64,000 bases of DNA from positions 15,704-79,703 of the forward strand of contig CAZEJB010000014.1 in assembly GCA_964512635.1 (NCBI GenBank), in the 5' to 3' direction. Position numbers and translations under genes: made by a program. A model generated the notes under the pieces. It saw only the letters and a program-made list of their open reading frames with translations. It was not told the DNA's origin and did not search any database. Source of the DNA: an uncultured Planctomycetales bacterium. Its GTDB lineage: Bacteria; 4484-113; JAFGCY01. Of the stretch, positions 20,962-47,278 are shown in pieces (position 1 is the stretch's first letter; each line of letters starts with the position of its first letter).

Positions 20962-23900
20962 TTGTCCGCGTTTGTCCATCTGCATAATCACAGTGAGTAC
21001 TCGCTGCTTGACGGCATTGCGCGCGTCGGCGACATGGCTGCACGCCTCAAGGCGCTGGAATACGACGCCTATGCACTGACCGACCACGGCGTCATGTATG
21101 GCGCCCTCGAATTCTATCTGGGCATGCAGGCCGCCGGGATCAAGCCGATCATCGGCTGCGAGGTCTATGTCGCCAGCCGTAAGCTGACGGATAAGGACAG
21201 CCAGCTTGACCGCAAGAGCTGGCATTGCGTACTGCTGGCTCAGAACGAGACGGGCTACATCAACCTGATGCGTCTGACCTCGATCGCGCACCGCTTTGGC
21301 TATTACTACAAGCCGCGGGTCGACGTCGAGGCGATCCGGGCGCACAGCGAGGGCATCATCTGCCTCACCGCCTGCCCCAACGGCGTGGTCGCCGGTCCCT
21401 TTCATGGAAAGGCGATGGGGGACGAGGGCCACGAGTCCGAGAGCCGCGCGTCGCAAAGCCAGGGGCCAGGCAGCGGGCTGGTCGGCGGCGGGCTTGATGG
21501 CGCCGACAACGAATGCGAGGCTGGCGGGGTTACGGCGGCACACGAGGCCGCGGCACGCCGCGCGCTCGAAACCTATCTCGAAATCTTCACACCCGAGCGC
21601 TTGTTCCTGGAGATCCAGAACCACGGCATGGACATGGAACGGGCCTACAGCCCCTGGGCCGCGGATATGGCCCAACGCTACGGTCTGCGCCTGGTCGCGA
21701 CCAACGACTGCCACTATGTGGCCAAGGATGATGCCCGGGCCCACGATATCTGCCTGTGCCTGCGCGACAAGAAGCTGCTCAGCGACGAGGACCGCCTGCG
21801 CTACAGCGGGCCGGAGTATTACATCAAGACCCAGGCGGAGATGGCCGAGCTGTTCGGCGCCTATCCGCAGGCACTTGCCAATACCAGGGCTGTCGCTGAC
21901 CTGTGCAACCTGAGTCTTGACCTCAAGCGGGTCTACTTCCCGCAGATGGAAGTGCCGATCGTAGGGGCGAGTCCTGACTCGCCATCTTCTGCCGTAGGGG
22001 TGGGGCTTGTCCCTACCCGTGATGGCGGTGCCGAAGACGGGCGGGATCAAGCCCAAGCCCCTCAAGTCGGAACGGAAGATGGGCGGACACAAGGTCCGCC
22101 CCTACAGGAAACCACCACCGATCAGGCCGCGCAGGATGCCTGGCTGCGCCATCTGGTCCACGAGGGTGCGATCCGGCGCTATGGCAGCATCAGCTCCGAG
22201 CTGCAGGAACGAATTGACTATGAACTTGGCGTGATCATCCCCAAGGGTTTTACGACCTACTTCCTGATCTGCCACGACTTTTGCGACTTCGCCCGCAGCA
22301 AGGGCATCCCGGTCGGCCCCGGCCGTGGTTCCGCCGCCGGATCGGTGGTCGCCTATTGCCTTGAGATCACCGACCTGGACCCGATCAAGTACGGCCTGTA
22401 CTTCGAGCGCTTCCTCAACCCGGAGCGCATCGAGCTGCCGGACGCGGACATCGATTTCTGCTACCGCCGGCGCGATGAGGTGATCGAGCACGTCAAGAAC
22501 AAGTACGGTGCGGACCGGGTTGCGATGATCATCACCTACAGCCGCCTGAAGGCCCGCGCGGTGATCAAGGCGGTCGGCCGCACCAAGGGCATCGCCTTCC
22601 AGTACACCGATAAGGTGACCAAGGAGATCAACGGCCTCAACCCGACCATCGACGAGGCCATTGAAGGCAGCAAGGTGCTGCAGGAGATGATCCGCTCGGA
22701 CAAGGAAATCGCCGAGCTGGTCGAGGATGCCAAAAAGCTGGAGGGAATCGCGGCCTACCAGTCCGTGCACGCGGCGGGTATCGTCATCGCCCCCAGCGAG
22801 ATCAGCAACTACGTCCCGGTCCAGCCGATCAAAGACAGTGATCTGCTGGTGACCCAGTACAGCATGGACTATGTCCCCAAGGCTGGTCTGGTTAAGTTCG
22901 ATTTCCTCGGCCTGCGTAACCTGACGATGATTGAGGACACGGCGCAGTACATCCGCCGGTATGTCGACCCTAGCTTCGACGCCCGCTTTGTCCCTGAAGA
23001 CGACCCTGAGACCTACGCCATGCTGCAGCGCGGCGACAACTACGGCGTGTTCCAGTTTGAAGCGCCGCAGGTGCGCCGGATGCTGATCGACGGCCGGCCG
23101 GAGAACGTGATCGACCTCGCGGCGATCAACGCGGCCAACCGTCCCGGTCCGCTGCAGAGCGGCGGTACCGCCCAGTACCTTGAGGCCCGCAAGGCCGGCA
23201 AGCAGAGCCAGGCGCGCTTCAAGAGCATCGCGACTATCCTTGAAAGCACCGGCGGCGTGCTGCTGTTCCAGGAACAGGTGCTGGAGATCGCCAAGCAGCT
23301 CGGCGGCTTCAGCCTCGGCGAAGCGGACCTGCTGCGCAAGGCGATGGGCAAGAAGAACATGGAAGTCATGCTGGCCCAGAAGGAGAAGTTCCTGGCCGGC
23401 GCCAAGCGCATTGCCGACGAGGGCGGTGCCAGGATCCCCACCCAGGAACTGGAAGACATCTGGCAGATGATGGAGACCTTCGCGGGCTATGGATTTAACA
23501 AGGCCCACTCGGTCTGCTATGCCTGGATTGCCTTCCAGACGGCTTACCTGAAGTGCCATTATCCGCACTATTTCATGTGTGCGATGCTCAACAGCTACCT
23601 CGGCAATGCGGCCAAGCTGGCGCAGATTCTGGCGCAGTGCCGGCGGATGAAGATCCAGGTGCTGCCGCCGAGTGTTAATGACGGCGAGCTGGAGTTTACG
23701 CCGACCGCCACCACGGGGATGGGCGAGATCGGCTCGATCATCTTTGGCCTTGGCGGTATAAAGGGCCTGGGCTCTGCGGCGGTCGATGTGATCCTGGCCG
23801 AGCGCCAGCGCGGCGGTGCATTTGGTGACCTGACGGACTTCTATAAGCGCACGAAGAGCAGCGCGCTGAATAAGAAGGTGCTGCAGAGCCTGGCCTGCGC

Positions 23901-25113
23901 CGGCGCCTTTGACTGCCTCGAGCCGCAGCGCAGCAAGCTGATCCAGCGCCTCGACGATATTGATGTCTTCCTGCGCGGGCCGGAAAAGCAGTTCTCGATG
24001 TTTGACGATTTCAACGCCTCAAGCGAGAACGATAGTGTGCTGCCCAGCAAGGAAGTCACGCGTATCGACATCGCGATGCTGGAGAAGGAAGCCATTGGCC
24101 TCTTCCTCACCGAACATCCCTACGCCGACCACCCGATGTTCTTTGACGACCGCTATGTCCAGCTGGAGCGCCTGCAGGAACTGGTCAACGAAAACCCGGC
24201 ATTCTGGCAGGAACGCCCGCTGCCGGCCAAGGGAATTGTCGGACTGCTGACCAATGTGACGATCCGCATGGCCAATACCAGCAACAAGCCTTTCGCCAAG
24301 GCACGGCTTGAAGATCCGGAACGCGGCGTCGAGCTGGTCATCTGGCCGCGCACACTGGAAGCCGCCCGCGACCTGGTTACTGAAAACAACCCGGTGATTG
24401 TCTGGGGCAAGGTCCAGACGCCGGATGTTGCGGCTAGCGCCGAGCAGGGCGACGAGAGCGAAGCTTTTGAGGCGATCGAGATCATCGTCGAAAAGGTCGA
24501 GCAGTACATCCCGCCACCAGGTGGGATTACCCCACGCGGCGACCGGGAAGAGCGCAGCGCAGCACCCCGCGAGACAACGTCCGCCGCGCGAAATCCCAGC
24601 CGGCTGGCCGATCTGACGGCCAGCGACCTGGCTGCGGCTGAGGCGGTAATGCAGATATCGGATAACGCTGCAGCGGGGGCCAGTCCGGCGCCCGTCCCTG
24701 AGAGCAATCAGGACCACTTGCCGTCCTCGCAGACGCGGCTGCGGCCTGTCCTGCGCCGTGTTGATGCAGACTCGGCAAGCTTCGAAAGCGCCGATGCCGC
24801 TCAGGAAGGAAGTTCATCGCCGTCGCCGGGCCAGTCCGCCGAGGCCGCCGATGAACTGGGCAAGGGTCTTGGCATGATCACCTGGTCTGTCGACCTTAGC
24901 CAGGCCGATGCCGCCGCGCTGAAACTGCTGGCGAATACCCTTGAGCGCACCGAAGGTGAGCAGGAGGTCCGCATGCTGCTAAAGGATGTCGGCGGACAGC
25001 TGCGCCAGATCCGCGTGGGCCAGCGCTTCTTCATCGACGCCCAGCAGGCCGAGGCCATCGAACAGCAGTTCGGCTTCCTGGAACGCATACAGCGCGGCCA
25101 GCCCCAGGCCTGA
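20962..25113 (+). CDS. dnaE: DNA polymerase III alpha subunit with several in-frame insertions
   Basis: FVHLHNHSEYSLLDG, TDHG, GRGSAAGS, PDADIDF, HAAG, KFDFLGL and FNKAH, plus an OB-fold. TTG start after GAGAGGA. Confidence 0.96.
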   Translation: MSAFVHLHNHSEYSLLDGIARVGDMAARLKALEYDAYALTDHGVMYGALEFYLGMQAAGIKPIIGCEVYVASRKLTDKDSQLDRKSWHCVLLAQNETGYINLMRLTSIAHRFGYYYKPRVDVEAIRAHSEGIICLTACPNGVVAGPFHGKAMGDEGHESESRASQSQGPGSGLVGGGLDGADNECEAGGVTAAHEAAARRALETYLEIFTPERLFLEIQNHGMDMERAYSPWAADMAQRYGLRLVATNDCHYVAKDDARAHDICLCLRDKKLLSDEDRLRYSGPEYYIKTQAEMAELFGAYPQALANTRAVADLCNLSLDLKRVYFPQMEVPIVGASPDSPSSAVGVGLVPTRDGGAEDGRDQAQAPQVGTEDGRTQGPPLQETTTDQAAQDAWLRHLVHEGAIRRYGSISSELQERIDYELGVIIPKGFTTYFLICHDFCDFARSKGIPVGPGRGSAAGSVVAYCLEITDLDPIKYGLYFERFLNPERIELPDADIDFCYRRRDEVIEHVKNKYGADRVAMIITYSRLKARAVIKAVGRTKGIAFQYTDKVTKEINGLNPTIDEAIEGSKVLQEMIRSDKEIAELVEDAKKLEGIAAYQSVHAAGIVIAPSEISNYVPVQPIKDSDLLVTQYSMDYVPKAGLVKFDFLGLRNLTMIEDTAQYIRRYVDPSFDARFVPEDDPETYAMLQRGDNYGVFQFEAPQVRRMLIDGRPENVIDLAAINAANRPGPLQSGGTAQYLEARKAGKQSQARFKSIATILESTGGVLLFQEQVLEIAKQLGGFSLGEADLLRKAMGKKNMEVMLAQKEKFLAGAKRIADEGGARIPTQELEDIWQMMETFAGYGFNKAHSVCYAWIAFQTAYLKCHYPHYFMCAMLNSYLGNAAKLAQILAQCRRMKIQVLPPSVNDGELEFTPTATTGMGEIGSIIFGLGGIKGLGSAAVDVILAERQRGGAFGDLTDFYKRTKSSALNKKVLQSLACAGAFDCLEPQRSKLIQRLDDIDVFLRGPEKQFSMFDDFNASSENDSVLPSKEVTRIDIAMLEKEAIGLFLTEHPYADHPMFFDDRYVQLERLQELVNENPAFWQERPLPAKGIVGLLTNVTIRMANTSNKPFAKARLEDPERGVELVIWPRTLEAARDLVTENNPVIVWGKVQTPDVAASAEQGDESEAFEAIEIIVEKVEQYIPPPGGITPRGDREERSAAPRETTSAARNPSRLADLTASDLAAAEAVMQISDNAAAGASPAPVPESNQDHLPSSQTRLRPVLRRVDADSASFESADAAQEGSSSPSPGQSAEAADELGKGLGMITWSVDLSQADAAALKLLANTLERTEGEQEVRMLLKDVGGQLRQIRVGQRFFIDAQQAEAIEQQFGFLERIQRGQPQA
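21961..22105. repeat. Four GTAG-type REPs (two forward, two reverse) inside the dnaE coding sequence
   Basis: GTAGGGGCGAGTCCTGACTCGCC (21961), GTAGGGGTGGGGCTTGTCCCTACCC (21994), a degenerate unit at about 22039, and GGGCGGACACAAGGTCCGCCCCTAC (22081). Confidence 0.85.
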
Positions 25114-25147
25114 GCCCAGGACTGACCGCGCCTCTCGCTATGGGACG
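25035..25147 (+). repeat. 113-bp direct repeat, copy 1 (dnaE 3' end, stop codon and downstream bases)
   Basis: Matches 25895-26006 except for one substitution and one indel. Confidence 0.92.
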
Positions 25148-25371
25148 CTGTCGGAACGCCGGCTTTAGCCGGCATTCTTCCCTGTATCTCGCAGCTTGCT
25201 GCAGTCCGATCCAACGCAGAGGCGCGGAGAACGCAGAGGACCGCAGAGCTAAGCATTTGCAGCATGCTAAGACAGGCAGGAAACAGCTGGAGCAGAGGCT
25301 GGAACCCGAACTCTTGTGCCACCTCGCGATATCATTTACGGTGCAGCGCGGAGTCACTTACAGTGAATGAA

Positions 25372-25851
25372 ATGCCCAAGTCGGAGCAAAACCTGGCTAG
25401 GCTGTTGAAGTCGCTTGGTCTTGTCGTGGCGGCTTGCTCAATGTGTTTTGTTTTGGCTGAGTGCGGAAGTGCAATCTATTGGTCCCGGCCGCGAATCACG
25501 TCGATCCATAGGGTGGGTCAGGCGATTGAGGTTCACACCCAGGCATCAGCGCGTGAGCCAAAACATAGGATCACCTCTATTTACTTGGTGCTGCCCACCT
25601 CGAAGTTGAGATTGTCAGCAGAGTTTGAAAGTGTTTCAACAATTGACCATGAGCTGAGGTCCCAAGGCAGGATTATCACTGTCGCCCATCAACCAGTAAA
25701 TGGTTCCGGCGGCATGTTCGTGCTAAGCCTGCCTGAGGGGGAGCTATCGGCTGGCGAACAAGCCAAGCTGGTGATTGTTAGCATTATTGACGGTCCTTTC
25801 TCACGACAGTTAGTCAGGGATCGTATTGTGCGGCTCAAAGGCAGGATGTAA
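25372..25851 (+). CDS. Low-GC hypothetical membrane or exported protein between the direct repeats
   Basis: N-terminal hydrophobic segment; composition differs from the flanks. Confidence 0.55.
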   Translation: MPKSEQNLARLLKSLGLVVAACSMCFVLAECGSAIYWSRPRITSIHRVGQAIEVHTQASAREPKHRITSIYLVLPTSKLRLSAEFESVSTIDHELRSQGRIITVAHQPVNGSGGMFVLSLPEGELSAGEQAKLVIVSIIDGPFSRQLVRDRIVRLKGRM

Positions 25852-25894
25852 CCGCCAGGTATGGGCCACGGAAGGGGACGCCCGCGCGACAAAA

Positions 25895-26006
25895 CGACGT
25901 CCAGCAGGCCGAGGCCATCGAACAGCAGTTCGGCTTCCTGGAACGCATACAGCGCGGCCAGCCCCAGGCCTGAGCCCGGACTGACCGCGCCTCTCGCTAT
26001 GGGACG
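25895..26006 (+). repeat. 112-bp direct repeat, copy 2 (duplicated dnaE 3' end)
   Basis: See copy 1. Confidence 0.92.
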
Positions 26007-26013
26007 AGCTTAG

Positions 26014-27666
26014 TTAGATGTCTCCGCCGATGCCTTCGTCATGACCTCCGGGGTCGTCGTCGCCGGGATCATCATCACCCGGATCGTCATCACCTGGGTC
26101 GTCGTCACCTGGATCGTCATCACCTGGATCGTCATCACCTGGGTCGTCATCGCCGGGATCATCGACGCCAGGATCGTCATCGCCCGGATCGTCGTCACCC
26201 GGATCATCCACGCCAGGGTCGTCGTCGCCCGGATCGTCATCGCCGGGATCGTCCTTCAGGGTATCCGGGTCGAAGTGCTTGCCCTTGGGTGCACTGAAGT
26301 ACCACGCCGGGCTGGGCTCGGGGCCGGTCGGGCTGTTGATCCAGTCCACCCAGGCTTGAAAGCCGCTGTAGACGTTGAAGATCGACTCGCCCTCCAGCGG
26401 CCAGGCAAAGGTTGCCGGCACGATGAAGCCCAGCGGCACGCCCTTAGCGTCCACCGGGTCGCCGGGCTTCTGCCAGAGGCCCAGGCGGTACTCAGCGGCT
26501 TCTCCGGGCTTGACCAGCAGCTCAGGCTTGTACGGCAGCGGGGTATAGCTGCCCTGGGCCAGCGGCGGGTTGAAAGTCAGGGTTACGATGGCATAGTCGC
26601 CGGCGACCGGCGTAGTGCCCGCCTTGACGTTAGCGCCCCAGCCACCGGGGCTGGAGGGCAGCGCCTCAGCGGTGGGCGCGAAGACCGGCAGGCTGGTTCC
26701 GTCTATGCTGGTCCAGACGCGCTGGTCGAAGTGGCGCTGGTCGTTGGTATGCACCGCGTCGCCATTGTCATAGAACTGGTCGACCGTGGCAAAAACCCTG
26801 CTGCCGGGGAAGGCCCCGCCAATGTTCAGCTGCCAGTTGCTGGCATAGCCCGCGCCGCGCGCCAGGGCCTTGACCAGCAGGTTAATCTGCACCAGGCGGC
26901 CCTGCTTGTCGCGCAATTCTTCTGCGCGCAGCGAGCCGACATAGTCATTGAAGTCATAGTCGCTGCCGCCGTCCTTGACGTCCTCCCAGACCATCTGGGC
27001 CTGGCCGGCGTCGCTGCCCTGGGGATAGACCAGCGGGTCGGCGGTCGGCGTGGCGCTGAGGGCAAAGTCGAGGCTGAAGAAGTCGCCGGGCAGCAGCGGG
27101 CTGGCCGAGCCGTCCATGTTAAAGGGCAGCTGATAGCTGAAGACCGCCGTGTACTCACCTGTCGAGGAATGCTCGACGTCCCGCTCGACATAGCTCAGGC
27201 CGGCGCCGCGCACGACCCAGAAGCGGTCCAGCACGGTGCCGGCGGCCGCCTCATAGCAGACGTGCAGGTCGACCATGTCGCCGCTGCTGAAGGATCCGTT
27301 AGCCTCCCCGGGGACGGCTGCCTCGCCGTGGGCGCTGATGGCCATCCAGAGAAACTTGAAGCTCTCTCCGGCGGCCAGGGCCGAGCCGCGCCGCAGCGGC
27401 TTGAAGCTGACGGCTGCGCTGGCCGGGGCAAGCTGATATGCGCCGGTGCTGCCAGCAGCCTGAGTTGCCGCTTGCAGTGCGCTGGTTCCATGGCTGAGCT
27501 GCAGTCCGGTCTGGAATTTCAGGTTCAGCGCGGTCGAGCCATCCCCCGGCTTGGGGTTCTTGGGGATGTTGATCGGGGCGCCGTTATAGCCCCCGCACGA
27601 GGTCAGCAATAACACCAGGGCGGCCAGGGCGAGCAGCGCCGGCCGCGAAGCTGATTTGGGAAACAA
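26014..27666 (-). CDS. Lipoprotein with a LruC/DUF4842-like domain and an acidic DDPG-repeat tail
   Basis: LTSC lipobox, WED...DYDFND motif, P..F.WPLEG..I..VY..F..W. TTG start after GGAGG. Confidence 0.75.
   Translation of the reverse strand: MFPKSASRPALLALAALVLLLTSCGGYNGAPINIPKNPKPGDGSTALNLKFQTGLQLSHGTSALQAATQAAGSTGAYQLAPASAAVSFKPLRRGSALAAGESFKFLWMAISAHGEAAVPGEANGSFSSGDMVDLHVCYEAAAGTVLDRFWVVRGAGLSYVERDVEHSSTGEYTAVFSYQLPFNMDGSASPLLPGDFFSLDFALSATPTADPLVYPQGSDAGQAQMVWEDVKDGGSDYDFNDYVGSLRAEELRDKQGRLVQINLLVKALARGAGYASNWQLNIGGAFPGSRVFATVDQFYDNGDAVHTNDQRHFDQRVWTSIDGTSLPVFAPTAEALPSSPGGWGANVKAGTTPVAGDYAIVTLTFNPPLAQGSYTPLPYKPELLVKPGEAAEYRLGLWQKPGDPVDAKGVPLGFIVPATFAWPLEGESIFNVYSGFQAWVDWINSPTGPEPSPAWYFSAPKGKHFDPDTLKDDPGDDDPGDDDPGVDDPGDDDPGDDDPGVDDPGDDDPGDDDPGDDDPGDDDPGDDDPGDDDPGDDDPGGHDEGIGGDI
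26048..26253 (-). repeat. 15-bp coding tandem repeat, 14 x (D/V)DDPG
   Basis: Counted from the translated ORF. Confidence 0.9.
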
Positions 27667-28188
27667 GATCCACCTCCATGTGGCTGTGCCCAACACGGGC
27701 GCACGGGGCAAGCATAACCGCCCAGGCGCGTGCTCGGGCTAAAGGCGGGTTAACACCGCGTACAGCTTGGCCGGACGCTTTAAGCAAAGTGCAACCGCCC
27801 GCGTTGAGCGCTGCGCATAGCCTGTAACCCCGCACGGCATTTTTATGGAGCGCTGGGACTGGCCCGGCATCTTCGCTGGGGAGCGCAGACTTTAGACTGC
27901 ATCTCTCATTCGAGCAGCCTGGAACTTCGCTGCTATCCAAATCAAATCCAACAGGAGACGCAAAGACCCTGAGGATATGGAGGTCGTCGAGCCAGTCAGG
28001 CTGAAGTTCATGTCGACATTCCTGCACTCCGTACAGCGCAGCCGAGCAGCCCTCATTAGTCGCTGTGACTCAGTGTCTCCTGTTTGCTTTTGGATTTGCT
28101 CTGCGGCACCGCGGCTCTTTGTGAATCCCAGCTTTACGCGCCGGGGCACGACGCGCGCAGGGCGCCGCGCTGCTTTTGGGAGAATTGT

Positions 28189-28559
28189 GCGAGTGGGCCA
28201 TAAGCCGGGTTCTGTTTATGCGGCCATCTGTCTGGGCCGTCTGTCTCCAGACGGCTCATGCGGTATTGCGCGGGGGCCGGGCCAGCCTTGCCGCTTTCGC
28301 GGCTCCCACGTCTGCCTTGCACCAGGCGGGTTTGCCTGAGCCGGCGTGTTACCACGCCGCTGGTGAGCTCTTAACTCGCCGTTTCACCGTTGCCAGCGGA
28401 CTCCCTGACCGGAATTTAGGCCTTATGGCCTAGAGCTGGCTGTTTGTTTCTGTAGCGCGTTCCATGGCCTCGCGACCTCCGGGTGTTACCCGGCGCCCTG
28501 CCCTGTGGTGCCCGGACTTTCCTCGAGGTGTTAACCCCGCGGCCGCTTGGCCCACTCGC
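28189..28559 (-). ncRNA. rnpB: RNase P RNA (type A)
   Basis: GAGGAAAGTCCGGGCACC, AACAGAAACAAAC, and the 3' ACAGAACCCGGCTTAT. Complementary ends GCGAGTGGGCCA/TGGCCCACTCGC form P1. Confidence 0.95.
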
Positions 28560-28584
28560 GCAGCGATTGTACCCGGCGGGGAGA

Positions 28585-28818
28585 AATGATGATTGAAGAT
28601 TGCTGATTGATGATTTTCATGAGCGCTGAGCATGAGCCGTCAGCATGCTGCCTGCCAGCAAAAAATTATGGGTGCGTAGAGCTCGACGTCGTTTTGGGCA
28701 AAAGGTTGATCGGAAGCAGAACGACCTCCATCCAACTCGGTACTCCGGACAATCAGCAATCAGCATTCAGCATTCAGCATAAGGCACTCAGCATAAGGCA
28801 CTCAGCACTCAGCACTTC
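28585..28818. repeat. 7-bp tandem arrays
   Basis: GATTGAA/GATTGCT/GATTGAT at about 28590 and TTCAGCA/TAAGGCA/CTCAGCA at about 28755-28815. Confidence 0.7.
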
Positions 28819-28821
28819 TGA

Positions 28822-29250: not shown

Positions 29251-29287
29251 GATGAGATGTTAGCGCGGTTGCCGGCCAGTGCAAAGC

Positions 29288-33208: not shown

Positions 33209-33835
33209 GTAGGGGCGGGGTAGTATCCCCGCCCCGGTGGAGCCTGCTAGCAGCTGACTAAAGCAGTCCCTGGCGCTTGAGGTGCCAGCGCAGCGGGTTG
33301 CTGACCACATACTGGCGATGGAACTCAAGGTCCTTTTCGCCGTCAAGAGAGCTATCCCAAAACCCTGGTTGCCAGAATTGCCCATCGTAAGGTGGCCAGC
33401 CAAGCTCCCTGACACCAACTCCGTACTGCTTCGTACTGTGGCGCTTGAAGTTACCGATTACGGCTGACAAGTCGGGGCGCTGAGGGAAAACCTCAAGATG
33501 TGGATGCGTGAGTCGGGTTTCGACAATGCCAAGCACTGCATGGAAGTGGTCAGGCATGACAATGTGACAGTCAAGAACCAGTCCCGGATTATGTTCTGGC
33601 ATGGCCAGCCAGATCTCCTCGATTTTCCTGCCGATTGCGTTGAGCTCCAGGCTTCCTTCTACAATTCGTCCAAACAGTGGCCTGCGCTCTGCCAGGCAGA
33701 CTGTCACGAAGTAGTTGCCACGCGTGTAATCTATGCGAGGGTCACGCATCGAGTTGCGGCTGCGATAGTCCCTAGGATCTTCAGGCATCGTGCATTGTAG
33801 CCAACAGCCGGGCGGGGATGCTACCCCGCCCCTAC
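33209..33835 (-). mobile_element. RAYT locus: transposase gene between inverted GTAG-REPs
   Basis: GTAGGGGCGGGGTAGTATCCCCGCCC at 33209 and a near-identical reverse copy at 33810-33835. Confidence 0.85.
33258..33788 (-). CDS. REP-associated tyrosine transposase (RAYT, Y1/HUH)
   Basis: NYFVTVC, VMPDHFH (HUH), FKRHS, FWQPGFWD and QYVVSNP (catalytic Tyr). Confidence 0.9.
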   Translation of the reverse strand: MPEDPRDYRSRNSMRDPRIDYTRGNYFVTVCLAERRPLFGRIVEGSLELNAIGRKIEEIWLAMPEHNPGLVLDCHIVMPDHFHAVLGIVETRLTHPHLEVFPQRPDLSAVIGNFKRHSTKQYGVGVRELGWPPYDGQFWQPGFWDSSLDGEKDLEFHRQYVVSNPLRWHLKRQGLL

Positions 33836-34089
33836 AAGAAGATAAAGTGGGCTCTTGCTGTGCAAGCAGCCCGGAGATCCGCGCCAAGAGCAATGTCGCC
33901 CGAAAGAAGCGTGGGTCGCTGGCCAGGATTCTTCAACTCCCAGCGATATGCTTCGACCAACCTAATACAATAGGCGCCTTGTCGGACAGACCCACAGTTG
34001 ACCCGCCGGGAAGCGGGAATACGGGACAAAGTCCCGCGCTCCAACCTGAGCAGCCGGCCGGCTCGCCGCGGCGACTGCGTCTCCCGCCC

Positions 34090-35990: not shown

Positions 35991-36020
35991 GGGCTGGACT
36001 GGAGGCTGTCTGCCGAGGTC

Positions 36021-36392: not shown

Positions 36393-36688
36393 GTCGCTAC
36401 CTCGTTCCAACCACCCGTTACCATGCCTGGGGCACGGCAAAGCCTACCTGACAGCAATATGCTGTGTGGCCGTTCTAAGCCATATTTGGCAGCACTTTAA
36501 CGTTGTCCTAATCGGACAGCCTGGAAAACTGCACCAATTCGATTGCACTTATCGGCCTTTCTTTTGGCGCCTTGAAGACGTTTCACAGGCGCGCAAGCTG
36601 GGTAAGACAGTTTTGAGGACGGCACAGGGCCCGCTGAGGACACCGGGGGCCGGACTTTAACCCTGTCACCACCGGGAGGGTGGTTCCG

Positions 36689-37940: not shown

Positions 37941-38067
37941 CAGTCGTCGAGAGGCGCCACGCCGAGAGGCAGGAACTAAAAGCGAGATATCTTTCCTTCC
38001 AAGCGAGCGCTCAACACTCCATATGAACCCCGGGCCTGCCTGAGCGTCAACTATGATGTAGGCTCAA

Positions 38068-40035
38068 GTGGACCGCTTCTTCCTCAACCCATGGATGCTG
38101 GCGATGGCCGGGCTGGCCGGCGGCATTGTGCTGCTCTACATCCTGCGCCTCAAGCGCAAGAAGGTGCGCGTCAGCTCGACATTGCTCTGGGAACGGGTAA
38201 TCCACGACTCCAAGGCCAACGCGCCCTGGCAAAAGCTGCGCAAAAACTGGCTGATGATCCTGCAGATCATCGCCCTGTGCCTGCTGGCGCTGGCGCTGGC
38301 GCGGCCCTTCATCTTCGGCTCAGCCCTGCTCGGTGGCCGCACTGTGGTCGTGCTGGATACAAGTGCATCCATGCTGGCGGCTGACGAAGACCCGGACCGG
38401 CTCGGCCGTGCGATGATCGAGGCCGGCAAGGTACTCTCAGATCTGCGCCAGTCCGACGAGGGCATGGTCATCGCTGCCGGTCCGACGCCCAGCCTGTTGT
38501 GCGCCTTTACCAACGACAAGAACCGCCTGCTCGACGCCGTGCGCGAAGCGCGGAAGTTTGCCGGCGGCCGCGCTGACCTTAACGCCGCGCTGAAACTGGC
38601 CTCGTCGGTCAGCACTGGATCAGCCTCCCGGGTGGTGATCTTCTCCGACGGTGCGGTGGACGACCTGGACCCCTTTGCCGTCAGTGATCTGAAGATCAAC
38701 TTCTTTCCGCTTGGCCAGGACACAGAAAATCTGGGCATCACCGGCGCTGGCGCCCGGCGCAATCCGCTGACAGGCCAGTACGAGCTGTTTGTGGCGATGC
38801 AGAGCTTTTTTGGCACGCCGCAGGAAGTCGACGTTACGGTGCAGCGCGAGGACGGCGACGTAATTGATGTTCGCACTGTCCATTTTGATCCTGGTGATCG
38901 CCAGGAGGTCCTGCTTCAGAACCTCCCTTACATCGCCGAGCCGATCAAAGTCAATCTGGATTTCAAGGACAAGCTGCAGGCCGACAACGAGGCCTATGTG
39001 GTCATGCCGCGCAAGGCGGAATACCGCGTCGCGCTGTGCAGCGACGGCAAGAGCTTCCTGCTGCGCAAGGTCCTGTCCAGCCTCAGCGATGTGCTCTACT
39101 ACGAATACAAAGGCGGCAAACTGGTTGCGGCCAATGATGCTGCCAACGCCTCAGACGACGGCAGCGCGAAGATTGACGTTTTCATCGTTGAAGGCGGCGC
39201 GCAGGTGCCGATGGACGACACCGCAAGCTATCTGTTCCTCGACACCAGCAGCCACCCCCTGCTTCCGGTGATCCCCGGCGCACGCGTCGAGACGGACTTC
39301 AATGCCAGCCCGCCCGTGATTCCAGCCGTGGTTGGACTCGACCGTTCGAGCCCGCTGCTGCGCTATGTGAACTTCAGCGATCTGCGACTGAAGTCAATGC
39401 GGCAGGTTCAGCTCAAGCCCTGGGGCCGCAGCGTGGTGGATGCCAGTGTCGGCCCGCTGGTGGTCGAGGGTGAGCTGAACGGCCAGCGTTCGCTCTATCT
39501 GGCCTTTGACGTCTATGAAAGCGATCTGCCGCTGCGGGCCGCCTTTCCGATTTTCATGGCCAACGCTGTGCGCTACCTTAGCGAGCAGAGCCAGGGCTCC
39601 ATCGGCCGATCGGCGCAGTCCGGCGCAAGGGTCGATCTGCTGGCTCCGCCGGATACAACCCTGGTTGAGGTCGCTGACCCAGGCGGCGCCCGAAGCTCGA
39701 TCAAACTAAGCGCGCGGGACTTCACGCTCAGCCGCACCAACCAGGTTGGAATCTATCGCCTGCAATACAAGGATGCAGCCGGGGCTGATCTCGGCCGCCA
39801 GCTCGTACCTGTCAGCCTCGTTTCGGCAGAAGAGAGCAACATCGCGCCCGCCGCTACGCTGAAGGTTCAGGGTGCCGAAGAGGCTCTGGCCGGCATCGGT
39901 GCCGGGGATAAGCTGCAGGAGATTGCCGGCACCAAACAGGTGCGGGTCAACCGCGAGTTCTACCTGTGGCTGATCCTGGCAGTTCTGGCCTTGATCACCT
40001 TCGAGTGGTGGCTGTACCATACCCGGGCGCTTTAG
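38068..40035 (+). CDS. BatA N-terminal + VWA domain membrane protein
   Basis: NPWML..., LLYIL.L.R, ALARP, VLDTSASM (MIDAS), IFSDG and a C-terminal EW.LYH TM segment. Confidence 0.85.
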   Translation: MDRFFLNPWMLAMAGLAGGIVLLYILRLKRKKVRVSSTLLWERVIHDSKANAPWQKLRKNWLMILQIIALCLLALALARPFIFGSALLGGRTVVVLDTSASMLAADEDPDRLGRAMIEAGKVLSDLRQSDEGMVIAAGPTPSLLCAFTNDKNRLLDAVREARKFAGGRADLNAALKLASSVSTGSASRVVIFSDGAVDDLDPFAVSDLKINFFPLGQDTENLGITGAGARRNPLTGQYELFVAMQSFFGTPQEVDVTVQREDGDVIDVRTVHFDPGDRQEVLLQNLPYIAEPIKVNLDFKDKLQADNEAYVVMPRKAEYRVALCSDGKSFLLRKVLSSLSDVLYYEYKGGKLVAANDAANASDDGSAKIDVFIVEGGAQVPMDDTASYLFLDTSSHPLLPVIPGARVETDFNASPPVIPAVVGLDRSSPLLRYVNFSDLRLKSMRQVQLKPWGRSVVDASVGPLVVEGELNGQRSLYLAFDVYESDLPLRAAFPIFMANAVRYLSEQSQGSIGRSAQSGARVDLLAPPDTTLVEVADPGGARSSIKLSARDFTLSRTNQVGIYRLQYKDAAGADLGRQLVPVSLVSAEESNIAPAATLKVQGAEEALAGIGAGDKLQEIAGTKQVRVNREFYLWLILAVLALITFEWWLYHTRAL

Positions 40036-40040
40036 TTCTT

Positions 40041-40155
40041 AGAGCGCGGGACTGTGTCCCGTATCCCTGGTCAGCTTCGCATTGTCAGGATTCGTGCTTA
40101 TTCCAAGTCTCAGTGTCCTTTAAGGACGAAGAATACGGGACACAGTCCCGCGCTC
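40041..40155. repeat. Inverted GGAG-type REP doublet
   Basis: AGAGCGCGGGACTGTGTCCCGTAT, then ATACGGGACACAGTCCCGCGCTCC. Confidence 0.8.
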
Positions 40156-40157
40156 CA

Positions 40158-41177
40158 TCAGAGGAGCTTCATCATCTCCCGGGCCAGCATACGGTTAAGG
40201 CGGTGGCCGCTGCGAAATGCTGTGACACGCCCGCTCCACTCCGCCGGCACGATATAGAGATCACCGATAAGGTCCAGCACCTTATGCCGCGCGTACTCGT
40301 CGGGGAAGCGCAGGGGACTGTCGGGGACCATCTCGGAGCGCGGACGATCCGTCCGCGAATCTTCAGGGAGCGCGGGACTGTGTCCCGTATCTTCGTCCGG
40401 AAGCGGACCACTGGTCCGCGCTCCGGTCTGCGGACTTAAGTCCGCGCTCCCAGCAGGCCGGATCACCAGCGCGTCCTCGCTGTGCGTGTTCTTCAACAGT
40501 CCCGCTGCGCTCAGCGCCTCGCCTTCGCGCTGAGTAATGAAGGTCCGCGCCGGGAGGATGCCGTCGACTGCCCACTTTCTTGTGATGTCACCAAAGCAGA
40601 CTCGCTGCTCTCCGAGTTCAGGATGACTGAAGGAGTAGTCGATGCTCAGTCGATAATCGGTTATGTCGCGGTTTCGTTCGATCAATATGTAGCTGCCATT
40701 CTCATCTTCGACCCTCAACTGCTCTACTGGCAGAATGGGTCGGTTTGCCGCCATGTACTCCACTCCCGCGGACGCGATCTCGTCATAGAGCGTCCTGGCC
40801 GAACCGTCGTGATTCGGCAGTTCAGTGCCGTTGTCCACCACAATGCGGCAGTGGTCGATGCCGGCGGCCCAGAGCGCGCAAAAGACATGCTCAATCACCA
40901 GCAGGGGCGGGCCGCCCTCGCCGGGCGGGAGCAGGGCCGTACAGTTGGGCAGCTCGAGGTAGCGCTCAGGCAGGGCGGGGTAGCGGTAGCCCTCGTGTTC
41001 AATCAGGATGCCGTGCGCGGCAAACTCCGGCGTGCTTTTCTCGACGTCGTAGGGGATTCCCCCGCGCTCGCATTCCTCGGGCGACAGCGCCGGGCGGATC
41101 TTGCAGGAACACTTGCTGCCAGAGAACAAACCCCTGCCAGAGAGGCCGACGCCGTGCTTGATGGTAGCTGAATGCAT
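40158..41177 (-). CDS. lpxC: UDP-3-O-acyl-N-acetylglucosamine deacetylase with an in-frame REP-derived insert
   Basis: G.GL.SG, IEH..CAL...GID, ELP..DGSA, I..ARTF, RF.DE..RHK.LD.IGDL and SGH.LN. Confidence 0.9.
   Translation of the reverse strand: MHSATIKHGVGLSGRGLFSGSKCSCKIRPALSPEECERGGIPYDVEKSTPEFAAHGILIEHEGYRYPALPERYLELPNCTALLPPGEGGPPLLVIEHVFCALWAAGIDHCRIVVDNGTELPNHDGSARTLYDEIASAGVEYMAANRPILPVEQLRVEDENGSYILIERNRDITDYRLSIDYSFSHPELGEQRVCFGDITRKWAVDGILPARTFITQREGEALSAAGLLKNTHSEDALVIRPAGSADLSPQTGARTSGPLPDEDTGHSPALPEDSRTDRPRSEMVPDSPLRFPDEYARHKVLDLIGDLYIVPAEWSGRVTAFRSGHRLNRMLAREMMKLL
40335..40451. repeat. Four GGAG-type REPs inside lpxC
   Basis: Units at 40335, 40367, 40402 (reverse) and 40429 (reverse). 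The second is essentially identical to the intergenic REP at 40041. Confidence 0.88.
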
Positions 41178-41265
41178 CGCAGCTAGTTATAGATGATGGC
41201 GGATGGCGGATGGCGGATGGCAGAGATGGAGGAATGAGGGTAGGGGCGCACGGCGTGCGCCCGGC

Positions 41266-41688
41266 TCACTTGACTAGTCTGATTGGCAAGCCCAATCCCT
41301 GAACTGACTCAACAAACTCTTGACGACCTCGGTCGGGCAACGATGCTTCCCACCAAGGCAGAACGTAACTTGAATGCGATTGCATAGGGTTATCGGGCAA
41401 TAGGATCGATCGATATCGGTAGTCAATGTCAGAGAGCGATTGTCTGAAGACAACATAGTCGGGCGATGTCTTATCCGAATAGGACGTTATGGCCTCTTCG
41501 AGCAGACGTCGGACGTCAAGGTCAAACATCAGTTCATCATAAATGTCGCCATAGCCAGATTCGCACGTCCCGACAAGCCTGTCCCATCCTTGCAATAGAT
41601 CCCACACAGCCACTGGCCGTCCATAACTCACCACAGTTCTCCAAACGAACTCTGCAAAAGGACCGTTTCGAAATTCTAGTGCCTTCAT
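41266..41688 (-). CDS. Low-GC hypothetical protein carried between inverted REPs
   Basis: 140-aa ORF with a GGAG RBS; AT-rich compared with the flanks. Confidence 0.6.
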   Translation of the reverse strand: MKALEFRNGPFAEFVWRTVVSYGRPVAVWDLLQGWDRLVGTCESGYGDIYDELMFDLDVRRLLEEAITSYSDKTSPDYVVFRQSLSDIDYRYRSILLPDNPMQSHSSYVLPWWEASLPDRGRQEFVESVQGLGLPIRLVK

Positions 41689-41815
41689 TTTGTGTGAATC
41701 AACTCCTCGAAATCACTCCGCAGCGCAAGCTATACGCCGGGCGCACGCAGTGCGCCCCTACATGTCTTCCCAGCGCCACGTTCCATCTGCCATCTGACAT
41801 TTGCCATCTGCCATT

Positions 41816-44815
41816 CTATGAGACCAGCTCCTTCAGCAACTCCCTCAGACTGAGTTGCGCGCTCGGCTTGACCTGGCTGGGGTCGGAGATGTCGCCAAAG
41901 ACGTCGTCGAAGAGGCCCTGCTTCTCTTTTAACATCTTCAGCAGCTTCTCCTCAACCGTGTTGCGGCACAGCAGGTTGATCACCACCACGCTGCCCTGCT
42001 GGCCCATGCGATGCGCGCGGGCGACGCGCTGCGCCAGCTTGGCCGGGTTAAAGGGCAGGTCGTAGTTGACCACCAGGCTGGCCGCCTGCAGGTTCAGGCC
42101 GGTGCCGCCGGCGTCAGTGCTGATCAGGATACGGCTCTTGCCCTCCTGGAAACGCTCGACCAGCTCGCGGCGGCCCTGGGCATCCACCCCGCCGTGCAGG
42201 AAGGCCGGGGCATAACCCGCAGCCGTCAGCTCGCGCAGCAGGATCTCGCCCATTCGCGTCCACTGGGTGAAGATGATCGCCTGGCGATCCAGCGTGCGGA
42301 TCTCGTCCTCAAGGATTGCGTTCAGCTCCGTGAGCTTCTGGCTTTCGCGCTGGCTCGGTTCGATCAGCTCCGGCGTGTCACAGACCTCGCGCAGGCGTTG
42401 CAGCAGGGTCATGGCGTTGTTGGTCGCCAGCTTGTCCCACTGCTCCTTGCTGAGCAGCATGCTGGTCTCGCCCTGCAGGTCCTTATAGAATGCGCGCTGG
42501 ATGTCGGTCAGGCTCAGCCAGCGCTCCATCTCGATCAGCGGCGGCAGTTCGGTGAGCGTCTGGGTCTTTGTGCGTCGCAGGGTCAGGGCCGCGATCTTGC
42601 GGCTGACTTCCTCGACCTTCTGATAGCCCTGGATGCCGCCGAAGCGGTCGAGGATCACGTAGCGGTCGCGGAAGGCCAGCGGGTTGGCGCCGAGAGCCCT
42701 GGGCTCGATGAACTTCATGATGGTGTAGAGCTCCATCAGCTGGTTCTCCAGCGGCGTACCGGTCAGGACAAACAGGTAGGGGCTGGCGAGGCTGAAGACC
42801 GACTGCGCGGTCTTGGTACGGAAGTTCTTGACGCGCTGGGCCTCGTCAAGGATCAGGATGTCGGGGGCCAGGGCCTTGAGCTGCTCGATATCGCGGTGGA
42901 CCAGCTCGTAGTTCACGATGTAGAAGAAGGGCATGTCCGCCGGGTCGTGGAAGATGCCGGGGAGCTGCTGCGCCTTGCCGGATGCCCTGGCATCCGCCTT
43001 GCCGGGCGGGCTGGCCAGGATCTGGTCCAGCAGCGCATCGGCTTCATCGCGCGCGCTGGCCTTCCTGGCCGCACGACCTGCCGGGGCAGGAGGGTCTTTA
43101 GCCTGCTGCGCCGCCGCAGCGCCTGTGGCGCGATCAAAGACTGCCGCCGCCCGATAGATCGATTCCCGCTCGTCCGGCCCGCCGCCAATAACCTCGCAGC
43201 GCAGTCCGGTGAAGCGCTGGATCTCGGACTGCCACTGGTACTTCAGCGAGGCCGGGCAGACAATCAGCGCGCGCTTCAAACCCTGCTTCTGTTTCAGGTA
43301 GAAGGCGGCGGTCATACTCTGCAGGGTTTTGCCGAGGCCCATGTCATCTGCCAGCAGGGCCCGCCGGTTGCTGACCAGAAAGGCCACCCCTTCGCGCTGA
43401 AAGGGGTAGAGCTTGGCTTTCACCGGCGTATCAGAATGGAGCGCGGAGTCTTCGGTGGGGCGGCCGGGCCGCTCAGAATGGAGCGCGTCTTCGGTGGGGC
43501 GGCCCTCAGTGGCCGCCTTCTTCTTATTCTCTGGCTTTGGCAGTCCCCACCACCAAACCCACTTATAGCCCTGTTCATTCGGCCAGCGCTTGTGAGGATT
43601 ATTCAAGATGTACTGCGCTTTCTCGAGAAGTTCGTCATCGTCTCGCATTATCCTATCGAGATACTCATCTTGCCAAAGGGACCCCACATAGCCTAACTCC
43701 TTTTGTGCAGTGTGGGCCGTAAATGATTTCCAGGAATGGACAACGTCCTCAAGGTAGTGCCCGGGCATAGGTTGCATGAGAACATGAACATGGTCGTCCA
43801 TCACGACGTAAGCAAAGAGGTGGTAACGCTGAGTGTCAAAGTGATGAATGGCACTGGCCACCAAATCACGGGCAGCTGGGCTCAGAGTTTGGTGCTTTTT
43901 GTTCAGCCTCCAGGTTACAAAGTAAGTTGAGTTACTTAGACGCCAGTGGGGAAGTCGGTGCCGATATTGAGAAAAATCGTCTTTGGCAGCTGGGATGGCG
44001 GCCAGTGACGGCCGCCCCACCGAAGAGTCCCGCGCTTCATCCTCGGCGCCCTCGCCGGCGATCCACTGTTCAAGCTCCTCCGCCAGCGTCTTTAGTCCCT
44101 CATAGTGATCCAGCACGGGCTTCACTGTTGGGTGTATGCGCACCTGCGCGCCGGCGACGTGCAGCCTGGCGACCAGTTCGGGGCAGTCCAGGGGCTGGCG
44201 CAGGGTATGCACCTGGTCGATATGCGCGGCAAGAATGCTGTGCAGTTCCGGCAACAGGAACTGCTCGGCGTGATAGGCCTGCACCTGGCGGAAGAAGGAA
44301 ATCGACTCTTCGAAACTGATCGCCCGGGCGCCGAACTCCTTCAGGGCCAGAGTGAAGCCCTTGTCGAAGCGCAGCTGGCCCTTGGCCCGGCGCAGCAGCT
44401 TCTCCAGGCGCCAGACATCAAAGTTGTCCCGCAGCGCTCCTTCCGTGCAGTACTCGCGCAGCAGGTTCTGCAACGGCCTGGCCGCCTCATGCGCCGGTGC
44501 GCTGACCAGGAAGCGCACTGACTGCGGCCCTTCGATGCCACGCTGCTTAGCACCGCTGAAGAGCACCACATAGCGCTGCATATGCGCGTCATAGGCCTTC
44601 TGCAGCGCTTCCCAGTCAGTGCCGGCAAAGAAACGGTCCGCCCGCGCGTCGCCGAGTTCTGCCAGCAGACTGGGGTAGGCCGAGTAGTCGCTGAGCGCAA
44701 AGCCGAAGCTGAAGTACTGGTTGATGATCCGGCGTATGTGCGGCGGCAGGCGCTGCTTGTCACCGCTGAAGCGGATCTCATCGCCGTTCTTGCCACCAAC
44801 TACCAGACGCGCCAC
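41816..44815 (-). CDS. SNF2-family helicase/ATPase with an internal RAYT transposase domain
   Basis: YPFQREG, LADDMGLGKT, LDEAQRVKN, LTGTPLEN, IFTQW and GG.GLNLQ.A..V...D.P.NPA...QR.ARAHRMGQ. Confidence 0.92.
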   Translation of the reverse strand: MARLVVGGKNGDEIRFSGDKQRLPPHIRRIINQYFSFGFALSDYSAYPSLLAELGDARADRFFAGTDWEALQKAYDAHMQRYVVLFSGAKQRGIEGPQSVRFLVSAPAHEAARPLQNLLREYCTEGALRDNFDVWRLEKLLRRAKGQLRFDKGFTLALKEFGARAISFEESISFFRQVQAYHAEQFLLPELHSILAAHIDQVHTLRQPLDCPELVARLHVAGAQVRIHPTVKPVLDHYEGLKTLAEELEQWIAGEGAEDEARDSSVGRPSLAAIPAAKDDFSQYRHRLPHWRLSNSTYFVTWRLNKKHQTLSPAARDLVASAIHHFDTQRYHLFAYVVMDDHVHVLMQPMPGHYLEDVVHSWKSFTAHTAQKELGYVGSLWQDEYLDRIMRDDDELLEKAQYILNNPHKRWPNEQGYKWVWWWGLPKPENKKKAATEGRPTEDALHSERPGRPTEDSALHSDTPVKAKLYPFQREGVAFLVSNRRALLADDMGLGKTLQSMTAAFYLKQKQGLKRALIVCPASLKYQWQSEIQRFTGLRCEVIGGGPDERESIYRAAAVFDRATGAAAAQQAKDPPAPAGRAARKASARDEADALLDQILASPPGKADARASGKAQQLPGIFHDPADMPFFYIVNYELVHRDIEQLKALAPDILILDEAQRVKNFRTKTAQSVFSLASPYLFVLTGTPLENQLMELYTIMKFIEPRALGANPLAFRDRYVILDRFGGIQGYQKVEEVSRKIAALTLRRTKTQTLTELPPLIEMERWLSLTDIQRAFYKDLQGETSMLLSKEQWDKLATNNAMTLLQRLREVCDTPELIEPSQRESQKLTELNAILEDEIRTLDRQAIIFTQWTRMGEILLRELTAAGYAPAFLHGGVDAQGRRELVERFQEGKSRILISTDAGGTGLNLQAASLVVNYDLPFNPAKLAQRVARAHRMGQQGSVVVINLLCRNTVEEKLLKMLKEKQGLFDDVFGDISDPSQVKPSAQLSLRELLKELVS
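43431..44020 (-). mobile_element. RAYT domain with inverted GTGG-type REPs, inserted in frame in the SNF2 gene
   Basis: RHRLPHW, TYFVTWRL, VMDDHVH (HUH), WKSFTA, LWQDEY.DRI.R and QYILNNP. REPs at 43494-43517 and 43997-44020. Confidence 0.9.
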
Positions 44816-47277: not shown

Positions 47278-47278
47278 T

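Follow-up and report, generated by a model that had tools for sequence, protein, structure and literature searches.

In a 64,000-nucleotide stretch of DNA from an uncultured Planctomycetales bacterium (contig CAZEJB010000014.1, positions 15,704 to 79,703; hereafter the window), repetitive extragenic palindromic (REP) sequences of three classes lie in frame inside dnaE, lpxC, and a gene for an SNF2-family helicase, and in the helicase gene they enclose a complete transposase domain of the REP-associated tyrosine transposase (RAYT) type. A first-pass annotation had proposed these three stop-free insertions within 23 kb (GTAG class in dnaE, GGAG in lpxC, GTGG in SNF2), and all three were confirmed. 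The evidence supports their being real REP-derived insertions at permissive sites. We consider it probable, at roughly 0.7, that REPs mobilised by RAYTs of the HUH/Y1 family occasionally enter genes and that the harmless insertions survive, that is, selfish insertion filtered by selection.

The window has a G+C content of 62% and belongs to a diderm lineage represented solely by metagenome assemblies. Among public genomes, the nearest is 'MAG: bacterium isolate SJ870' (GCA_020849855.1; MAG, metagenome-assembled genome), whose contig JADZFO010000027.1 is syntenic with the window from ~10.9 to 56 kb. Orthologues from SJ870 were used to set the true gene starts and to inventory all indels across 33 orthologous gene pairs, which share 57–97% protein identity. 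In these pairs, indels longer than 15 aa are confined to lpxC and SNF2, and REP copies occur in coding sequence only in dnaE, lpxC, and SNF2.

The SNF2 gene (41816–44815, minus strand) is a single open reading frame (ORF) of 999 aa with Pfam matches to SNF2-rel_dom, Helicase_C, and Y1_Tnp, the last covering aa 294–405 (35.2 bits, cut-off 23). The RAYT catalytic domain spans aa 282–419 (43559–43972, minus strand) and contains an HUH motif, DDHVHV, and a catalytic tyrosine motif, YILNNP. It scores 78.7 bits against NCBIfam NF047646 (E 4e-22, cut-off 80), and the nearest solved structures by sequence are TnpA proteins (PDB 2fyx, E 2e-5). The helicase itself belongs to superfamily 2 (SF2), of the SNF2/Rad54 type (best match 1z63). 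The domain sits in the interdomain linker as part of an in-frame REP-RAYT-REP unit (43438–44038, minus strand), with one GTGG REP upstream (43997–44020, minus strand; GTGGGGCGGCCGTCACTGGCCGCC) and two downstream in inverted orientation relative to it (43455–43517, plus strand; copies 43494–43517 and 43455–43474). The unit is set between truncated GGAG-REP heads, which are found at 44024–44038, ~43479–43487, and 43438–43448. The first-pass annotation was right that the SNF2 insertion is REP-derived and in frame, but it missed that the insertion consists not of repeats alone but of a complete transposase unit.

The embedded RAYT has no stop codon of its own, the reading frame runs continuously through SNF2, and the sole in-frame start within 40 codons upstream is a GTG inside the REP; as far as the sequence can tell, it would therefore be produced as an inner domain of the helicase protein. 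An AlphaFold2 model of the fusion, used only for its pattern of order and disorder, predicts an ordered N-terminal domain and a beta-alpha-beta module at 295–420, with predicted local distance difference test (pLDDT) values below 50 at 255–291 and 421–494, which span the REP-encoded junctions. A Pfam scan of the 999-aa protein found no Hint/intein family, and the junction peptides 'DSSVGRPSLAAIPA' and 'TEDSALHSDTPVKAKLYPFQ' contain no splicing motifs, so the RAYT domain probably remains in the mature host protein.

The helicase family consists of an N-terminal domain, a linker, and the SNF2 core, and its RAYT-less orthologues are 725–818 aa long. Among the matches listed, about 25 orthologues lack a RAYT, and four carry one in the same linker: the window protein (P0121), its SJ870 orthologue (P0122), P0123, and P0124. 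All four genes share the neighbourhood M20 - SNF2 - LpxC. In each, the RAYT is flanked in frame by inverted hairpin repeats that differ by genome, being GTGG in the window, intact GGAG in SJ870, GTAG/GTGG-like at locus L003, and a different 27-nt hairpin unit at locus L004. P0121 and P0122 show 90% identity in their host parts, but their RAYTs share only 43% identity and differ by indels; the window RAYT is nearest to that of P0123 (60%, with host parts 66% identical). P0130, which is 84% identical to P0123, has no RAYT, and a search of its linker for a REP footprint gave only a weak GTGG-like hairpin. The GTGG unit of the window lies amid truncated GGAG heads whose counterparts in SJ870 belong to intact REPs, so this site has probably undergone at least one replacement. 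In all four genomes the G+C content at third codon positions (GC3) is 0.56–0.73 in the RAYT segment vs. 0.81–0.96 in the host parts.

Embedded RAYTs are not confined to SNF2 genes. A protein search using the RAYT and the start of the helicase as query was run against 1.84 billion cluster representatives. Among the matches listed, 123 RAYT representatives carry the HUH motif. In 21 of these the protein measures 380 aa or more, and extended host sequence adjoins the RAYT at one end or at both; 20 of the 21 also retain the tyrosine motif. Host domains were found in 14 of the 15 long proteins scanned with Pfam, and comprise leucyl-tRNA synthetase (LeuRS), three valyl-tRNA synthetases (ValRS), two other class I tRNA synthetases, citrate synthase, MurB, TsaD, CarB, a GH38 mannosidase, a metallophosphatase-PHP protein, and MmeI- and Eco57I-type enzymes. 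The sources are JGI, ENA, and NCBI, including Phycisphaeraceae MAGs. Automatic annotations already give such chimeras double names, for example the JGI label 'leucyl-tRNA synthetase/REP element-mobilizing transposase RayT'.

At the DNA level, a scan with an alignment of the RAYT subfamily against JGI metagenomes yielded 80 loci. In 11–14 of these the RAYT lies within a stop-free ORF reaching hundreds of codons on one or both sides, while the remaining RAYTs are free-standing, with a start 3–7 codons upstream and a stop 3–10 codons downstream. The proteins that host the embedded copies are a DUF1156 DNA methylase (at seven loci, of which five were scanned and two assigned by similarity), an MmeI-type enzyme, LeuRS, QueA (as an N-terminal fusion), and SNF2 (at L115, from similarity to L003). 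Clear inverted flanks of GTGG-head REPs, such as GGTGGGACAGGCCTCCGTGCCTGTC, accompany ~8 of 14 embedded copies, the flanks of the others being weak. Across the subfamily, a clear inverted REP pair was found at 46 of the 69 loci with enough flank, and most free-standing copies are likewise flanked. RAYT identity follows host identity in the DUF1156 methylases and in LeuRS: LeuRS L158 and P0363 are 66, 64, and 67% identical in the N-part, RAYT, and C-part, respectively, and loci L122 and L136 are 87% identical in the RAYT vs. 82% and 68% in the host parts. This pattern suggests that the embedded LeuRS and methylase RAYTs have been retained with intact catalytic motifs over long divergence.

Separately, peptide repeats encoded by REPs recur around embedded RAYTs, with 'VGQAVGQ...' upstream and 'GTEACPT' or 'HGQDxRAT' downstream (DUF1156 loci L113–L136, P0447, P0472), and they may be usable as a protein-level signature for in-frame REPs and REP-RAYT-REP units.

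As enzymes of the HUH/Y1 type, RAYTs are relatives of the IS200/IS605 TnpA proteins, which act on single-stranded hairpins, and RAYTs are held to duplicate REP doublets. A helicase or translocase that exposes single-stranded hairpins could be a functional partner of the transposase, much as Rep and helicase domains cooperate in Helitrons or relaxases, with the fusion selected for REP mobilisation. Such a partnership would fit the presence of a RAYT with intact HUH and tyrosine motifs in the same linker of four orthologous SNF2 genes, and HUH nucleases are known to work when fused to helicases; even the two RAYT types at one site could reflect selection for the context. However, the ~25 SNF2 orthologues without a RAYT, the predominance of free-standing members in the subfamily, and the other hosts speak against it: tRNA synthetases, MurB, citrate synthase, CarB, QueA, and methylases do not unwind DNA. 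Since the same subfamily occurs in so many unrelated hosts, cooperation specific to the helicase is unlikely, and we regard the reading of a selected partnership as such.

The second insertion lies in lpxC (40158–41177, minus strand), which is intact as judged from Pfam LpxC matches in two stretches and from alignment with orthologues. Its GGAG-class cluster (40335–40450) comprises four REPs in frame, ordered > > < < (40335–40357 and 40367–40387 on the plus strand, 40403–40424 and 40430–40450 on the minus strand), and codes for most of an insert of ~40 aa that is absent from the syntenic orthologue P0003 (72% identical) and from all distant LpxC sequences. Among LpxC proteins that are 70–78% identical, the number of REP-derived units at the site is zero in P0003, three in P0002, ~three in P0004, and four in the window. 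An intergenic GGAG REPIN (site I14, 40041–40156) lies directly downstream of lpxC, and its copy at 40136–40156 (minus strand) shares a 21-nt core, GGAGCGCGGGACTGTGTCCCG, identically with the intragenic copy 40367–40387, while the copy at 40041–40061 (plus strand) is one base off. An AlphaFold2 model of LpxC (mean pLDDT 81) places the insert between the strands 237–241 and 283–285, with aa 247–278 below pLDDT 50 and without secondary structure; modelling thus supports a surface loop that is predicted to be disordered. As an observation on the neighbouring spacer, the lpxC-SNF2 interval measures 638 nt in the window vs. 156 nt in SJ870.

The third insertion interrupts the linker between the PHP and palm domains of DNA polymerase III alpha. 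The dnaE gene (20962–25113, plus strand; start set from orthologue P0242) is intact, with Pfam PHP, DNA_pol3_alpha, finger, and HHH_6 domains, and a GTAG-class cluster of 145 nt (21961–22105) lies in frame between PHP and DNA_pol3_alpha. It holds four REPs, GTAGGGGCGAGTCCTGACTCGCC (21961–21983, plus strand), GTAGGGGTGGGGCTTGTCCCTACCC (21994–22018, plus strand), a degenerate copy (22035–22062, minus strand), and GTAGGGGCGGACCTTGTGTCCGCCC (22081–22105, minus strand), and is translated as 'VGASPDSPSSAVGVGLVPT...EDGRTQGPPLQ'. SJ870 has two REPs at this site vs. four in the window. Within the lineage this linker is of hypervariable length, and distant DnaE proteins do not have it.

Just after dnaE (25035–26003) is an insert of ~860 nt with lower G+C content, flanked by direct repeats of ~105 nt that copy the 3′ terminus of dnaE, with 99% identity over the first 83 nt; it contains a GGAA/GGAG-type REP at 25153 and an ORF (25264–25851, 195 aa) without a Pfam hit, and SJ870 has just 46 nt between dnaE and the next gene. 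It has the appearance of a small element that integrated and left a long target duplication. In addition, low-complexity inserts occur in SNF2 (aa 566–625, 42940–43120) and DnaE (aa ~150–200, 21400–21560); they are lineage-specific and common to the closest relatives. No recognisable REP was found in either, and they could be old, decayed REP inserts.

The REPs of the window have the heads GTAG, GGAG, or GTGG, each followed by a G+C-rich stem of 6–10 bp, and are imperfect palindromes of 20–40 nt with a conserved GTAG-like tetranucleotide head at the 5′ end. Curation gave ~33 intergenic and 11 intragenic copies, a load of ~0.6–0.7 copies per kb in this genome region, which bears out the first-pass tally of more than 25 intergenic REPs alongside two RAYT domains, one embedded in SNF2 and one free-standing. 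A generic palindrome scan and a one-mismatch prefix scan were discarded as detectors; both were too loose and picked up chance hairpins in G+C-rich coding DNA. A strict detector (exact 8-nt head and a stem of at least 6 bp) found 37 copies in the whole window vs. six on a reversed-sequence control, and the consensus patterns of the two abundant classes gave 11 matches vs. 0.01 and 5 vs. 0.26 expected by chance. Over a 42-kb stretch with orthologue-verified boundaries, REP density is 2.75 per kb in intergenic and 0.31 per kb in coding DNA, a 9-fold coding depletion (binomial p ~1e-8 against random placement); coding sequence makes up 84% of the stretch, yet holds just 11 of the 30 copies. REPs are thus predominantly extragenic, although 3 of the 14 REP loci are intragenic.

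REPs also seem to fall inside long ORFs at 4089–4427, 16067–16131, 17747–17801, and 33810–34042, but these ORF starts are over-extended and the repeats are really intergenic. Orthologue comparison and inspection of the N-termini ruled out the tricorn-like protease, epimerase, aldolase, and OppB genes as intragenic cases; therefore, dnaE, lpxC, and SNF2 are the only ones in the window. The tricorn-like protease ORF of 1417 aa, for instance, has its real start, with a signal peptide, near 3717, and upstream of that gene four head-to-tail REP variants of the form GGAGCGC(A/C)G(A/G)C...GCATCT are arranged at a 30-nt period (4313–4427).

Genome-wide sampling was done in SJ870, in 18 blocks of 8 kb taken from a scan for the GGAG REP core with one genome per species. 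The strict detector found 132 copies in 131 kb vs. nine on the control, and ~14% of copies are intragenic by this count, which includes probable false singletons. The expectation of the first-pass annotation that coding insertions extend beyond the three was borne out in this relative: its QueA carries three to four REPs at the loop 'PLPPYI|...ERYQTVY', an MmeI-like restriction-modification enzyme contains an inverted REP pair, and further intragenic REPs lie in dnaE and in the SNF2 flanks. A further ORF of more than 490 aa at locus L007 (2–1477, minus strand, SJ870 contig JADZFO010000026.1) bears two REP clusters of ~186 nt each, with at least four and at least six copies; one is an outer GGAG pair around GTAG copies, and the other is alike with a degenerate outer GGAG copy. 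It was not counted as a gene: GC3 is coding-like on both sides, yet there is no Pfam hit. Beyond this lineage, several Verrucomicrobiota MAGs of Pedosphaera- and Limisphaerales-like type also contain the exact GGAG core GGAGCGCGGGACNNNGTCCCG at low density (loci with the core include L008, L017, L013, L028, and L048), which hints at lineage affiliation or a common REP/RAYT family. No convincing intragenic REPs were found at these Verrucomicrobiota loci, and matches to the core in actinomycetes were dismissed as chance hits in coding DNA.

These data bear on the proposal of the first-pass annotation that REP/RAYT is more than a family of intergenic repeats and remodels proteins, as a system that would adaptively write peptide segments into proteins to the benefit of the host. 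Inserts in three genes within 23 kb, the additional cases in QueA and the MmeI-like gene, and the persistence of the dnaE inserts over species-level divergence all lend it some support. The 9-fold coding depletion speaks against it, as does the turnover of the inserts, which vary from zero to four REPs among close relatives, are conserved neither in copy number nor in sequence, and are missing from the 72%-identical LpxC orthologue. The encoded peptides are of low complexity, the one in lpxC is predicted to be disordered, and no insert-specific conserved residues were seen. The accompanying idea of a filter on frame and loop position holds in one respect, as the sites are permissive (a loop in LpxC, linkers in DnaE and SNF2). 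The other part is not supported: 4–6 of the 6 frames of each REP consensus are without stops, so that being stop-free is nearly automatic and carries little information, and an insert length that is a multiple of three is survivorship in genes required intact. The frame and stop filters are weak and explained by composition. On all these counts, adaptive remodelling is very unlikely.

The least probable account is mis-assembly of metagenomes at repeats, or over-long ORFs in G+C-rich DNA; the window and all its relatives are metagenome-assembled, G+C-rich DNA does yield spurious long ORFs, and four REP-containing ORFs of the window were over-extended, but a conserved host protein continues in the same frame on both sides of the insert in all three genes, the architecture repeats in independent assemblies from NCBI, ENA, JGI, and Logan, and identical embedded proteins were recovered from two sources (P0447 from JGI, P0510 from ENA).

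The second RAYT of the window is a free-standing gene (33258–33794, minus strand) with an HUH motif, PDHFHA, and a tyrosine motif, YVVSNP. It scores 61.2 bits against NF047646 (E 1e-16, cut-off 80) and has no Pfam hit at E up to 1e-3. It is flanked by a GTAGGGGCGGGG REP (site I9; 33209–33235, plus strand) and its inverted partner (33810–33835, minus strand). In the window, each RAYT lies between REPs of its own, GTGG for the embedded one and GTAGGGGCGGGG for the free-standing one, and inverted cognate REP flanks (the REPtron arrangement) were found at I9 and at I10, the SNF2 unit, as well as at L001, L003, and L004. The gene and its two REPs are absent from the syntenic spacer between the SBP and OppB genes of SJ870 (L002, 20894–21108), which carries GGAG REPs in place of the RAYT. 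Since the SNF2 RAYT differs and the free-standing RAYT is absent in SJ870, both RAYT loci of the window differ from the closest genome. RAYTs are usually described as immobile, extragenic, vertically inherited single-copy genes; the RAYTs of the window do not conform to this picture, as one is part of a 999-aa ORF and has a counterpart of another type at that site in SJ870, and the free-standing one has no counterpart at the syntenic site.

The layout of the repeats suggests how insertions may accumulate. Inverted pairs in head-out orientation (REPIN doublets) are present at sites I14, I18, I23, and I25, and in a recurrent arrangement the forward copies come first, from left to right, followed by the reverse ones, in many cases with one class nested within the pair of another. 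This nested head-out layout is found in dnaE, in lpxC, in both L007 clusters, and in an intergenic array at 47277–47727, where an outer GGAG pair (47277–47299, plus strand; 47705–47727, minus strand) encloses an inner GTAG pair (47581–47603, plus strand; 47672–47694, minus strand).

We infer the insertion mechanism, the translation of the fusion, the activity of the RAYT, and the selective rationale from these patterns. REP hairpins would land at random or near resident REPs. Being G+C-rich palindromes with mostly open frames, about one third of insertions would preserve the reading frame, and selection would purge all but the frame-preserving ones in surface loops or interdomain linkers of indispensable genes, where the survivors would be tolerated as disordered peptide. 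The interior of a resident REP pair may be a preferred landing pad for further REPs, which would account for the clustering, the nested > > < < arrays, and the turnover of copy number at fixed sites. In SNF2, a complete REP-RAYT-REP unit would have entered with matching orientation and frame, either anew or in place of an earlier unit, joining the RAYT to the helicase through REP-encoded linkers that are predicted to be disordered. The host gene could then act as a safe haven of the kind used by inteins, since it would supply expression and would itself be ruined by any imprecise deletion of the element.

We extend this tentatively, at somewhat less than even odds, to REP-RAYT-REP units as a class. 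They would reside in frame, like inteins but without splicing, in genes for housekeeping and DNA modification (SNF2, LeuRS, ValRS, MurB, citrate synthase, QueA, and DNA methylases), and their RAYT would be active as an internal domain of the host protein, would gain expression and protection from deletion, and could persist for long or be swapped for another RAYT type at the REP-marked site.

Several points count against selfish insertion filtered by selection and its intein-like extension. GTGG REPs are not dispersed in the window, where dispersed copies of the class were not found and the three copies all belong to the SNF2 unit. The landing-pad idea is built on architecture, not on observed events, and the fusion protein is deduced from the ORF alone, with a weak AlphaFold2 model (mean pLDDT 58, predicted template modelling score 0.34). 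The RAYT would have to have lost its stop codon on entry into a gene that must stay intact. The lower GC3 of embedded RAYTs suggests recent arrival, which clashes with the long residence suggested by co-divergence of RAYT and host in LeuRS and the methylases. Every sequence comes from a metagenome assembly, in which repeats can produce errors.

Other features of the window were also recorded. Tandem arrays of heptamers (GATGGCG / CCATCTG and variants) adjoin GTAG REP pairs on their outer sides, in inverted orientation, at 41195–41221 and 41783–41814, 60918–60990 and 61294–61362, 53890–53923, 28753–28816, and 50110–50146, and together with the GTAG pairs they build larger composite inverted structures around intergenic spacers. 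REPs touch or overlap stop codons at 57686–57689, 47275–47299, and 40156–40160: at 57687–57689 an acetyl-CoA hydrolase gene has the TAG of a GTAG head as its stop codon, and the M20 gene and lpxC terminate 0–2 nt ahead of a GGAG REP. A DUF4842-family gene (26014–27666, minus strand) contains a 15-nt tandem repeat of ~13 copies, also with a 45-nt period (26054–26253), which encodes a pentapeptide-repeat C-terminal region. A bacterial RNase P RNA of class A (28186–28558, minus strand; 214 bits) is the sole Rfam family at gathering score in the window.

In-frame REPs show how a bacterial genome with little non-coding DNA can absorb a very high load of selfish hairpins, and they keep supplying disordered loops to essential enzymes, among them the replicative polymerase and LpxC. 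Chimeric ORFs that are automatically annotated as 'transposase' or as double-function proteins mislead the annotation of core genes. If the embedded units are what they seem, RAYTs move together with their REPs, against the 'non-jumping, extragenic' picture, and a whole REP-RAYT-REP unit can relocate or be replaced; the fusions would also provide a natural test of a Y1/HUH transposase working as an inserted domain.

REPs in genes are a published phenomenon, here found in a new lineage. Intragenic REPs of GTAG and CGTC type were described by Di Nocera, De Gregorio, and Rocco (2013, BMC Genomics 14:522, PMC3733652), who reported dimers and clusters in frame in ORFs, with inserts of 20–30 aa and up to 43–82 aa, many of them in replication and repair genes, including dnaE and dnaE2, and read them as probably neutral, in linkers or loops. 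The REPs of the window likewise include GTAG-headed palindromes, are associated with RAYTs, and form in-frame inserts in genes; unlike in that study, three classes occupy three genes within 23 kb at ~0.6–0.7 REP per kb, and the transposase gene itself lies in frame inside a host gene, an arrangement for which term searches of the main text of PMC3733652 gave no mention. The Rickettsia palindromic elements (RPEs; Ogata et al. 2000, as cited in PMC3733652) are, according to that citation, palindromic repeats in frame in conserved genes for functional proteins, and as described there they resemble the present inserts in being tolerated at permissive sites of conserved genes. They differ in belonging to another sequence family, those classed by Di Nocera et al. 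falling in the CGTC super-family, for which that study found no dedicated transposase. Their host has the reduced genome of an obligate intracellular organism.

Among transposases, the TnpA proteins of IS200/IS605 (PDB 2fyx, 2xm3) share the HUH/Y1 fold family and the flanking hairpins, whereas IS200/IS605 elements are autonomous, multi-copy, and disrupt the genes that they enter; in the present case the transposase ORF is joined in frame to the ORF of its host. Helitron Rep/Hel and relaxase-helicase proteins are obligate, family-wide fusions of HUH with superfamily 1 helicases, unlike the present case, in which the helicase is SF2 and most orthologues have no RAYT. The REPIN-RAYT system (Bertels and Rainey, bioRxiv 10.1101/2021.07.10.451892) has the same inverted REP doublets, HUH motif and catalytic tyrosine, RAYT placed between cognate REPs, and specific RAYT-REP pairing; it differs in that one RAYT of the window lies inside coding sequence and is of another type than that of a close relative at the same site, and that the free-standing RAYT is missing at the syntenic site of SJ870. 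A full-text literature search found no description of an in-frame RAYT or a RAYT-helicase fusion, which is not proof of novelty; to judge from the ORFs, the translation of a RAYT as an internal piece of host proteins, recurring in many metagenomes, appears undescribed. The units resemble inteins in being putative selfish protein-coding elements in frame in conserved housekeeping genes, which would be expressed together with their host and shielded from imprecise deletion. They differ in that no Hint or splicing domain and no junction motifs were found in the 999-aa SNF2 protein, so that the insert presumably stays in the mature protein. If this likeness holds, they would be a second example, besides inteins, of a selfish coding element hiding in indispensable genes.

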